Of a stretch of 64,000 nucleotides of DNA, positions 1,858 through 62,741 are shown piece by piece (the stretch's first letter is position 1; every line of letters starts with the position of its first letter). The translations under genes and the position numbers were made by a program. The notes beneath the pieces are model-generated. The model was not told where the DNA came from. It was given only the letters and a program-made list of their open reading frames with translations, and did no database searches. The DNA is from Phoronis australis (lineage: Eukaryota > Animalia > Phoronida), in assembly GCA_002633005.1 (NCBI GenBank), contig NMRA01000206.1, positions 533,203-597,202 of the forward strand, read 5' to 3'.

Positions 1858-2048
1858 CGCCAATTGCAGATTGAAAACCGGCATTATAATGCACCGAAAC
1901 TTTCAGTTGGGATGATTTACGTTTATCGATAAACTGGTCAGCCGAGTCTGGACCGCTGACCAGTGCCCCATGCAGAATGTTAGGGTTTGGCGTAGTGGCC
2001 TCGATGTTTGTCCGGTCACATGGCTCTTTAAGCGACAGTGGGCACGCA
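1858..2048 (-). CDS. GH9-like gene A, exon 8 (terminal exon not found in window)
   Basis: ttcacag|...|gtaag, 191 nt, phase 2-1. SACPLS...PNPNILHGALVSGPDSADQFIDKRKSSQLKVSVHYNAGFQSAIG. Confidence 0.92.
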
Positions 2049-2849
2049 CTGTGAATGCAGAGTTAACAGGATTATTTACACAGTAAAGGAGGTAAGCACG
2101 TCCCTTCAGGTTTGTCTCCCAAAGCAATAAGTAACAAATAAAAATAAATAAAAAATAAACAAAAAACGGAAAAGAGTGAAAAAGACAAAATACATACATT
2201 AGTTTTCAAAATAAATCGGACAATATCGCATCAGACAAAATTTCTACGCGGATATTTAATTCTTGCAGACCCAACTAGGCTTTAGCACCGGTGAAATTCT
2301 GTTTCACTTTTTTTCGGAAGTTTTAGAAGGATTGCTCAGGCTACCCGAAATAACGACTACCCTGACGAAAGGTCGACAGCAGCTTTATTTTATCACGACA
2401 CAAGTCTCGTCTAGCTTTGCAGAACTTTCCGATTTATGAATGAATAAGAAATACTAACTCCAAAAGTAACAATCGCAAGGACATCCAAAATGCACCAAAA
2501 GAACTTTTTTTCATACTTTTATTTTGCCCTAGCATGATAATTACATGTCGCATACATGTAAACCAATACAGTATACATCGTTTACGAAGAATAACATTAC
2601 GTAAGTCAACAAGTAATTTAATAAAGTTGATGAACAATTGGATATTAAGAGTTTTTTAACAAACTTGTGGCTAAATATGTAATTTTTGCTAGCATGATCA
2701 ACAGATTAATGTTACAATTTTCCGACTGAATGTTTCCCAAAAAAAACAAAAAACACTGCTATCTTGTCCACATGAAAATTTACATGTAATGTTTGTTTTA
2801 ACCACTCAGCAAACGGGAGTCAGAAACCGGAGACAAGACGACATTCCCA

Positions 2850-5520
2850 AAAGAGATGGAGAAAAGTTTCACTGTGTACACCACAGAAAGAGCATAGATC
2901 ACTTGTTTTTATTTTAATTTTATGTAAATAACTATTAGTTGGTAATATTCTGTGAATTAAGCGGTATTGAAACCAACGCAATTTTGTATCTTTTGTACAA
3001 TTGAAGGGTAGTTTATTTACTTTTCTCCACCATGTATCAGAGTCACGTAAAATTTATATTATTTATAACACCGTTTATATCTATCTCAGATGACCACTTG
3101 TTTTTATATTTACAAGCTGTCTGAAGTGACTGTACTAAGGTGTCATGAATATTTACCTCTTGTGATTTATTATGTAAAATTTTATAAATATAACTTGGAA
3201 AATTTGGTAAAAAGATATTGTCTTGTCTATTCTTAAGACCCCTGTACGCTGCAAAGGTTACACTTCTTAATCCATAGAATTCTAGTATTGGAGGTTGAAA
3301 GTTATAACTATTACAGAGTTGTTCATAGGACATAAAAGAGCCTTCAGCCTTAAACAAATCACTATAGACTCCCCTTTCATACCAGGACTTGTAAAAAATA
3401 GATTTTCTACCAACTTTAATCTTTGAAATTATCAACTTTACAACTCAAAACTGCCTCAGCAAGGTCACGTATGGTATTTGAGGTGAATAGTTTACGACGC
3501 CACAATATTTTCAAAGACTTAATAAAAGAAAACTAACATGAACCACTTTTAAACCACCATGATCCTGATTTTGTACAATTTAATTTCGGCTAACTCTGTC
3601 ATTCTTCCCATTCCGAATGAAGCCAAAGAAAACTCGCTCTAATTCTTGAATAACGTCATTGGAGGGGCTAGGGACAGATTGAAGCAATTGAACAATCCTG
3701 GACAATAAAAGTGTCTTAACCACGATTATTTCACCTAAAACAGTAAGAATTGTTCTTGACCAAGAGCTCACCATTTTCTTAATTTCCAAAAACCTGAAAC
3801 TATAGTTAATACCCGGCATTGCATTATAATCAGTGGAGAAGTTGATTCCCAAAAATATGAAACGTTTGTTGGTCCATTACAGGTTCTAATTGCCACAAAG
3901 TTTTTCGTCCGAGTCTTTTTTGAATCAATCCAAACACATCTTGTTTCCTCGATGATTGGCTTCAAACCAGAAAATTTCGCAAATTGGTCAATTAAATTCA
4001 AAGATGGTCTAAGAGATAACTCAGAACCGTCCAAAATTAAACAAGAGTCGTCAGCGTTCTGGATCAATTTACACTCAGAAACACCTATCCTGATCCCAGT
4101 GATGCCACCATCCCGACAAAGTAAGTTACCCAATATTTCTACACATAATACAAAAAGGTAAGGAGAAATAGGGTCTCATTGACGACAGCCTCTCCCCATA
4201 TCAAGAAAATCAGAGAAAATCCATGTTGGAGAACACAAAGACAAGATTTGTTGTAGAGTGTTTTAACCGTGTCAATGAACCTTGGGCCAAAGTTAAAGTA
4301 TGGCAATGCCTTTAGGATATAGGAAACCGAGTTGAAAGCTTTTTCAAAATCGATCATTAAGAGCAGTCCGGGAAAGGGTTTACAGTCTTAGAATTGAATT
4401 ACATGATATAAAATTCTTATGTTTTCCCCAATATATCTGCCTTTCATGAAACCTTGTTGGTTCTCGTGAATAAGGGATCCGAGGACGCTTTTTAGGCGTC
4501 TTGCAATACAACCAGACAAAATTTTGTAAGTAATATTCAATAGTGAAATTGGACGCCAAATTTTGATGAATTCTCTTGGTTTATTTTTTTGGTATATACC
4601 CTGTTTTTGAGTTGTAGATAATTCTCCTTTATTGATACCTTCTTCAAAAGATCAGAACAAATAATATTTAAGGTCTGGCCAAAAAAAAATTCTACTGTGA
4701 AACCATCTGGGCCAAGACTTTTGTTGTTTTTTAAATCTTTCAGAGTTGCATGAATTTCCTCCAAAGTGATAAATTTTTCAAGTTCGACTCTGATAGACTG
4801 GTTCAATTCAGGCATTGGGCACGATGCCAAAAGTTCATTTAAATTAACATCAACAAGGACGCCGTCTTTACAGGAGTATAAATTTTTATAAAAAGAAGTG
4901 ATCTCCGAGAGGATAGCGGATTGTTCCTTGATAATAGCGTTATTGGTGCTTAGTAGCTTAGTTACATTCTTATTCACAAAATTTCGTTTTTCTAATGCAC
5001 AAAAATATTTGGTTGGTTTTTCGCCATTTTCAACCCAGTTAATTCTCGATATGACGTCATGCATGTATTCTCTGCGACAATCTTCATATTCTGACTTCTT
5101 AATTTCCAGTAGAACAGCAATTTCAGGATCGTCACTCTCATTGAACCGATCTTGAAAGGACATTAACTGTTCTTCCAAGTCTTTTCCTTTTCTATTTTTT
5201 CTTTTTCTTAGAGATACAATAGGGAATAGTTACAGTTCGAATATTTAACAATAACGTCTCCAAAAACAATTGATCAGATATATAAAACTGAAGATTATCA
5301 GAGTCAATTTCATGTATTTTGTTCAAATCGTATACTGGAAGAGCATAATGTTTTTTTTGTACGCAATATCTCATTCTTAACGAGATTAATATATTCTCTG
5401 TCTTTTAGCAGTGAGGTATTAAATTTCCAAAACCTCGGTCCTTTTTTGAACGTAGTTAATTGTATAGTTAAGACGACGTTGTTATGGTCCGATCAGTAGC
5501 CCGACTGTATTTCTACCTTT
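2850..5520 (-). mobile_element. Decayed L1/Tx1-clade LINE ORF2 in intron 7 of gene A
   Basis: Frameshifted pieces in the expected order: SDHN..GPRFWKFNTSL (end of endonuclease), GEKPTKYFCALEK, KSLGPDGFTVEF, IDFEKAF, QNADDS (RT), LRWFQYRLIHRIL, CSFC. Confidence 0.88.
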
Positions 5521-62400: not shown

Positions 62401-62419
62401 GTTGAAATTTCATTCTTAC

Positions 62420-62741
62420 CTTTCTGAACTGGCTGAAATAAATCCCACTCTGGGTCGTCAACCGGACCAGTCTTCAGTTTTTTCATCCCGCATTGTAAAG
62501 TGTGACTTACGCAGAGACACTGTGCCAAGTTGAAACTGAATGCGTGGCACCCAGCGTTAGCCGTGCATCCGCGTGCGCAAGTCACTGGCGTGGGTGCCTT
62601 GAGAATTGTCGAATTCTTATTTATACTCATTCGTTTGCCAGCTGTTTTGAAATATTTTTCAGTCCTGTAGGTTTCTTCTCCAAGGACGAGAAAAACTACT
62701 GTTACAGGTAAAAAAACTGCGACGGCACAAAGGGACCGCAT
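62420..62741 (-). CDS. GH9-like gene B, coding exon 1: signal peptide + PAN/apple-like domain
   Basis: MRSLCAVAVFLPVTVVFLVLG leader; TCARGCTANAGCHAFSFNLAQCLC; DDPEWDLFQ. Ends AAA G|GTAAG (phase 1). A candidate acceptor (acaacag) lies just 5' of the ATG, implying an upstream UTR exon. Confidence 0.8.

Follow-up and report, generated by a model that had tools for sequence, protein, structure and literature searches.

Animal genes of glycoside hydrolase (GH) family 9 are as a rule classed as cellulases and serve as a basis for inferring diet. According to the accessible part of PMC6032398, the second Asp of the GH9 DAGD motif is the catalytic base and the first is an essential support, a Glu in region III is the acid, and a His and an Arg in region II bind substrate; that part also mentions, by way of another paper, base substitutions in Medicago and in a few sea-squirt isoenzymes, whose activity is not assayed there. 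Here we describe two GH9 genes, A and B, in a 64,000-nucleotide window (the whole stretch of DNA that was analysed) of the phoronid Phoronis australis, contig NMRA01000206.1, positions 533,203 to 597,202. Both genes are intact and under purifying selection, and both are without the catalytic residues. With a probability of roughly 0.55, we favor the reading that they encode secreted, non-cutting, glycan-binding pseudoenzymes, in which a PAN domain is joined to a GH9 barrel lacking catalytic acids.

A six-frame motif scan and a comparison of the window with itself placed two paralogous exon sets on the minus strand (Table 1). Gene A consists of eight exons running from 19950 to 1858, and gene B of eight exons running from 62741 to 30560 plus a ninth. 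All introns are GT-AG in both genes and the joined frames are free of stops, giving 533 (A) and 536 (B) codons for exons 1-8, with 383 of 536 residues identical (71%). An earlier note made from the sequence alone (the original prediction) had claimed equal lengths and no stops for exons 2-8, and this was borne out (168, 188, 163, 100, 305, 172 and 191 nt in both genes); the 548-residue spliced protein that it foresaw is reached in gene B with the ninth exon. No match to this exon was found for gene A within positions 1-1857, and the end of gene A likely falls left of the window. The GH9 profile PF00759 matches 13 of the 14 GH9 exons (E<=0.1), in order and over profile positions 1-443, gene A exon 5 being the one without a match; by sequence, both genes are GH9 family members. 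The 'cellulase' architecture originally proposed was right about the GH9 domain and missed a second domain: PF00024 (PAN_1) scores 27.4 bits (A) and 33.4 bits (B) in exon 1, the curated cut-off being 21.4, and the Atlas neighbors of the exon 1 product are PAN proteins. A fold model of this domain had low confidence (predicted local distance difference test, pLDDT, 56), was too weak for a fold search and was not used. PAN domains have roles in protein or glycan binding. Both N-termini have a hydrophobic stretch within the first 20 residues, a likely signal peptide, so that both proteins are probably secreted.

Residues were numbered after Thermobifida fusca Cel9A, via an actinobacterial relative aligned to T. 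fusca E4 (1JS4). In this numbering A and B both carry D55H, D58N and E424K, which confirms that all three catalytic acids are lost. The altered motif also lies where it had been reported, across the exon 2-3 junction and in exon 8. In each gene exon 2 ends in TAC CAC G|GT, and the remainder of GGWYHEGSNNMK(F/Y) comes from exon 3; exon 8 reads D(K/D)RK(SS/TN)QLKVSV(H/D)YNAGF, with Lys (AAA) at position 424 and one residue missing upstream. Among 83 aligned database GH9 domains, a set picked by similarity to the window exons and not a census, 73 retain D/D/E. H376 and R378 of region II, present in 70 and 59 of the 73 canonical relatives, are W and I/V in A and B. Judged by these residues, A and B miss all three criteria of an active GH9, namely DAGD, E424 and H376/R378.

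Could some cellulase activity remain, through alternative splicing or through substitute acids such as the new Glu, which adjoins position 55? Gene B has a tandem acceptor whose second site would omit this Glu and yield the usual GH9 spacing, which suggests that the extra residue arose through an acceptor shift. A junction restoring DAGD, a possibility raised along with the original prediction, was sought, but none of the five in-frame acceptors near exon 3 yields Asp. Splicing cannot restore D55 or E424, since the codons of His55 and Lys424 are internal to exon 2 and exon 8, respectively, and the window holds neither a further GH9 exon nor an active GH9 elsewhere. Moreover, both genes fail the region I pattern of PMC6032398, which 61 of the 73 canonical relatives match. 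We consider residual cellulase activity very improbable.

We then compared the paralogues for signs of selection. The ratio of nonsynonymous to synonymous divergence (dN/dS; Nei-Gojobori) is 0.24 over exons 2-8 and 0.23 without exon 7 (bootstrap 0.165-0.309), at a dS of 0.87; this ratio, whose calculation had been proposed with the original prediction, is not near 1. The lowest values are those of exons 2 and 3 (0.14 and 0.08), which bear the changed motif, and the highest those of exons 4 and 5 (0.41 and 0.37). No stop or frameshift is found in the 16 exons despite 133 synonymous differences. The paralogues had been described as well diverged, which holds for exon 5 (34 of 100 nt differ, as stated) but not for exon 7, where 6 of 172 nt differ (5985-6156 against 46993-47164; 96.5% identity), so that divergence is uneven. 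Synonymous differences number 3 over the 35.5 sites of exon 7 and 133 over the remaining 257.5 sites (dS 0.09 against 0.87; Fisher p 8e-7), and the introns flanking exon 7 are unlike. Exon 7 was therefore likely homogenized by a recent gene conversion confined to the exon.

Where in the cleft do the losses fall? A column was called conserved when it was at least 85% conserved among the 73 canonical proteins. In each gene seven of the ten cleft columns are changed; among the 94 conserved columns outside the cleft the changes number 13 (A) and 14 (B) (Fisher p 3.0e-4 and 4.4e-4). Overall, 90 of 108 conserved columns are kept. Residue loss is concentrated in the cleft, and the scaffold is kept. 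The list of cleft positions and their plus- and minus-subsite labels follow the Cel9A literature. All six plus-subsite residues on this list are changed (H125W/Q, W128V, W313V/Q, H376W, R378I/V and Y420S/N). The minus-subsite residues are mostly retained (Y206, W256, R317, Y/H318 and Y429); D261 is kept in B and is Asn in A, and F205 is lost (T/P).

The change of all six plus-subsite residues and of F205 would also suit a barrel that has given up sugar binding and works as a scaffold for proteins, for instance by decoying enzyme inhibitors or by associating with active cellulases or matrix proteins. PAN/apple domains of factor XI bind proteins, and a weak factor XI PAN/apple match (E 0.02) was obtained. 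The accessible part of PMC6549527 cites GH pseudoenzymes that act as decoys. On the other hand, W256, R317, Y206, Y429 and Y/H318 are retained in both genes, nothing points to a particular partner, and the window contains no active GH9. We regard a purely protein-binding role as unlikely, though it deserves to be kept in mind.

The best full-length relatives of A and B, at 42-45% identity, are GH9s from hemichordates, molluscs and cephalopods. No close orthologue was found in protein and metagenome searches, for which annotated genomes of near kin may be absent. A search with exon 6 gave 14 matches among 93 candidates (best full-length 45%) and one with exon 3 gave none among 46; against 50% representatives exon 3 had 439 matches, with a top identity of 57% among the best 150 of the 439. 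A mixed-alignment search, in which part of the exon rows were misaligned, gave 41 of 7990. Metagenome contigs contributed 45 loci, with DAGD in 37, the changed motif in none and the motif unreadable in eight. Trees were built on 37, 26, 35, 25 and 21 rows, taken from alignments of 47 to 85 after removal of near-duplicates and of many rows from bacteria and plants; we excluded P0149 (T at 424) and P0002, which were truncated or gappy. The trees join A and B with a support of 100/100; their stem has a length of 0.84-0.89 and their tips of about 0.2. The shared replacements, which the original prediction had rightly reported in both genes, are because of this long, fully supported stem to be read as one ancestral loss and not as two. 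According to the trees, the cleft was rebuilt once, in the common ancestor, before the tandem duplication.

Several other GH9s have changed catalytic residues. P0106 (Glandiceps talaboti XP_077990543.1, 'endoglucanase G-like') has D/S/K at 55/58/424 (D58S, E424K), P0038 (Glandiceps XP_077990957.1) has D58H, and P0191, a Popillia japonica GH9, has E424D and further cleft changes. P0022 and P0042, with the cluster members P0164-P0166, bear Cys-rich C-terminal repeats without a Pfam match; the states at 55/58/424 in this group are H/D/Q and H/H/D, with a one-residue insertion, and it constitutes a second candidate GH9 pseudoenzyme family. Because P0106 and this group were found in addition to A and B, the loss may be a recurrent one. 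P0022/P0042 are sister to the partial protein P0017, which retains DAGD (100/98, 176 columns), and a separate loss is therefore favored; their grouping with A and B (90 in a quick tree, 92/78 in another) may be a long-branch pull. P0106 stands with hemichordate enzymes in two trees (98/95 in one), and another tree pairs it weakly with A and B (24/72). Approximately unbiased tests rejected neither a clade of A and B with P0106 (p 0.405) nor one with P0022/P0042 (p 0.44), and derived states shared with A and B fail to single out P0106, which has 5 of 41, the same as P0042 and the canonical P0120. A structural model of P0106 is a GH9 barrel (pLDDT 86.8; target template-modelling score, TM, 0.96 to the earthworm and termite cellulases; root-mean-square deviation 1.3-1.4 A to animal cellulases). 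Since its alignment consisted mostly of canonical enzymes, the model speaks for fold compatibility only; on this model, catalytic replacements like D58S/E424K would fit an intact GH9 fold.

These relatives bear on whether the cleft has been re-tooled instead of silenced, with His55, Asn58, Tyr206 and Tyr429 acting beside a Lys424 that would neutralize uronate, in a lyase-like manner or as a His-based epimerase. Polysaccharide lyases have His/Tyr/Asn sets, and His-based epimerases occur among related (alpha/alpha)6 barrels. H55, the added Glu, N58 and K424 are identical in A and B at a dS of 0.87, and constraint is strongest in exons 2-3. D55H with the one-residue insertion is found again in P0022/P0042, whose closest relative P0017 retains DAGD, and E424K is found again in P0106, so that each is seen in two lineages. 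A GH9 barrel might then have become a His/Asn/Tyr/Lys enzyme for anionic polysaccharides, for example a lyase, and similar animal conversions might have happened more than once. We find re-tooling, and this broader version of it, equally doubtful. The new cleft residues are identical between the paralogues at 7 of 11 positions, against 71% (383/536) for the whole protein; therefore, there is no sign of special retention and no support for new chemistry, and of the two functions put forward in the original prediction the re-tooled barrel is left unsupported, while the binding scaffold gains weight from the presence of the PAN domain. Furthermore, other disarmed GH9s carry other sets (H/D/Q, H/H/D, D/S/K), and a single base change in the ancestral codon suffices for each of the replacements (D to H, D to N, E to K). 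A lyase profile match was absent among the Pfam matches of the exons; gene A exon 6 gave weak matches to GH76, GH127, GH88 and GlcNAc 2-epimerase, all below cut-off.

Transcription was assessed for gene A only, by mapping four runs to positions 201-20200: one contig run (X1) and three raw-read runs (X2-X4), the latter added by species label to a run with a 0.08 share of the words, about one fifth of each being read. The run search itself listed no RNA data set containing the sequence. The exon 6-7 junction is crossed by 8 reads in X2 and 9 in X3, with the first mate on the plus strand, which fits minus-strand RNA in a common library type. Of the four runs, just X2 and X3 have depth in the bin of exon 8; a repeat dominates that of exon 2. 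The spliced 3' part of gene A is transcribed at a low level in some samples.

Selection for a function other than inverting cellulose hydrolysis, as originally proposed, is supported by the low dN/dS, by the kept scaffold around a changed cleft and by the lack of an Asp-restoring acceptor. For the glycan-binding pseudoenzymes that we favor, the following course can be envisaged. An ancestral animal GH9 would have lost its general acid (E424K) and base pair (D55H, D58N), and its plus-subsite half would have been rebuilt (H125, W128, W313, H376, R378, Y420) with much of the minus-subsite half retained; a PAN module would have been gained and tandem duplication would have followed. Such a barrel could presumably neither protonate a leaving group nor activate water. 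The remaining minus-side half-cleft might hold a glycan chain or chain end without cutting it, the PAN domain might add a second contact, to glycan or protein, and the protein might behave as a lectin or as a tether, with a role in the gut, in mucus or in immune recognition. With three acids gone and a Lys in their place, anionic glycans would be sensible ligands to consider first.

A number of observations weigh against this reading. The stem leading to the A and B pair is long, and the non-cleft conserved columns kept are 81 (A) and 80 (B) of 94, against a canonical median of 89; together these point to some general relaxation. With the plus-subsite aromatics and F205 lost, and D261N in A, glucan binding may be weak or gone. 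As for the RNA, the exon 6-7 junction is absent in X4 and also in X1, the bins with gene A exons 1, 4 and 5 have zero depth and that of exon 3 at most 0.2, and the exon 2-3 junction that forms the motif is absent among the joints listed. The long stem and the low, 3'-only RNA cover would equally suit slow decay under weak constraint, the measured constraint stemming from an earlier period, from gene conversion or from a misfolding cost. Exon 7 has indeed been homogenized, and a scarab GH9 is reported as inactive and lowly expressed in the accessible part of PMC10981690. However, dN/dS remains 0.23, with an upper bound of 0.31, when exon 7 is removed, 16 exons have stayed open across the synonymous differences counted above, and the loss is biased to the cleft. 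We judge decay improbable, slightly more so than re-tooling.

Table 1. Exons of genes A and B, in window coordinates.
Feature	Position	Strand	Remark
Gene A exon 1: start codon, signal-like stretch, PAN domain	19638..19950	-	PF00024 E 3.1e-6
Gene A exon 2: GH9 start; terminal GGWYH (D55H)	18702..18869	-	
Gene A exon 3: E-G-S-N-N-M-K (D58N, one added residue)	14483..14670	-	
Gene A exon 4: loop with H125W, W128V	10431..10593	-	
Gene A exon 5: Y206 retained	9844..9943	-	
Gene A exon 6: W256, R317 retained; W313V; RNA-supported junction with exon 7	8027..8331	-	
Gene A exon 7: HHR to WHI; near-identical to gene B counterpart	5985..6156	-	
Gene A exon 8: E424K, D428H	1858..2048	-	
Gene B exon 1: start codon, signal-like stretch, PAN domain	62420..62741	-	PF00024 E 4.1e-8
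Gene B exon 2: terminal GGWYH (D55H)	59242..59409	-	
Gene B exon 3, first copy	56325..56512	-	second acceptor 3 nt downstream would omit Glu
Gene B exon 3, second copy, 1 nt different	53991..54178	-	inside 2.2-kb duplication
Gene B exon 4: H125Q, W128V	52642..52804	-	
Gene B exon 5	50395..50494	-	
Gene B exon 6: W256, D261, R317, Y318 retained; W313Q	48535..48839	-	
Gene B exon 7: HHR to WHV	46993..47164	-	
Gene B exon 8: E424K; preceded by 16.2-kb intron	30560..30750	-	
Gene B exon 9: final 12 residues and stop	29409..29446	-	

Other features lie within and around the two genes. A 2.2-kb segment that includes gene B exon 3 occurs twice (96% identical, 53917-58422), flanking a single N at 56250; it is likely an assembly duplicate or two alleles placed in tandem, or else a real exon duplication. 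The 16-kb intron 7 of gene B contains, on the same (minus) strand, a single-exon open reading frame (ORF) of 925 codons with leucine-rich repeats (39682-42459), which starts with a hydrophobic stretch and probably has a membrane segment close to its end. Intron 3 of gene A holds a 420-codon ORF with a GIY-YIG domain (10928-12190, plus strand), preceded by what by eye is reverse-transcriptase-like sequence, a candidate remnant of a Penelope-like retroelement. Intron 7 of gene A has broken ORF pieces (3043-5229, minus strand) that by eye resemble a long interspersed nuclear element; a Pfam match was absent for the single piece scanned. Triplet repeats of the (ATC/CAT) type are found a few hundred bases upstream of both first exons, at about 20400-20600 and 63050-63100.

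How do A and B compare with known systems? They share their Pfam family, across exons 2-8, with the animal GH9 endoglucanases of termite (1KS8), earthworm (3WC3) and polychaete (4ZG8), and hemichordate XP_077991299.1 and Mytilus XP_063408599.1 are among their best relatives, at about 43% identity. They differ from animal GH9 endoglucanases in that D55, D58, E424, H376 and R378 are replaced and in that a PAN domain stands in front, where those enzymes have CBM2 or nothing. P0106 is like A and B in being a secreted-type GH9 with E424K, G-S-N-M for GDHV and W313Q, together with D124E; unlike them, it keeps D55 and has an acidic N-terminal region without a PAN match. P0022 and P0042 share D55H and the one-residue insertion with A and B, as well as the loss of E424, H376, R378 and H125, but have other residues at 58 and 424, have lost Y429 and R317, and end in Cys-rich repeats. 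Our literature search, with most subscription journals outside its reach, found no PAN-GH9 protein and no animal GH9 without all three acids. Outside GH9, leaf-beetle GH28 pseudoenzymes are kept and needed, according to the accessible part of PMC6549527. Like A and B, which are probably secreted, these are secreted GH duplicates without catalytic acids, yet kept; with other folds and ligands, they offer a functional analogy only. A and B and at least one named hemichordate protein bear the cellulase label or domain without the catalytic acid. Chitinase-like GH18 lectins and GH16 beta-glucan recognition proteins are likewise GH relatives kept without catalytic acids and, if our reading is true, GH9 would, through a conserved non-cutting member with a PAN domain, become another of the hydrolase families turned into animal binding proteins.

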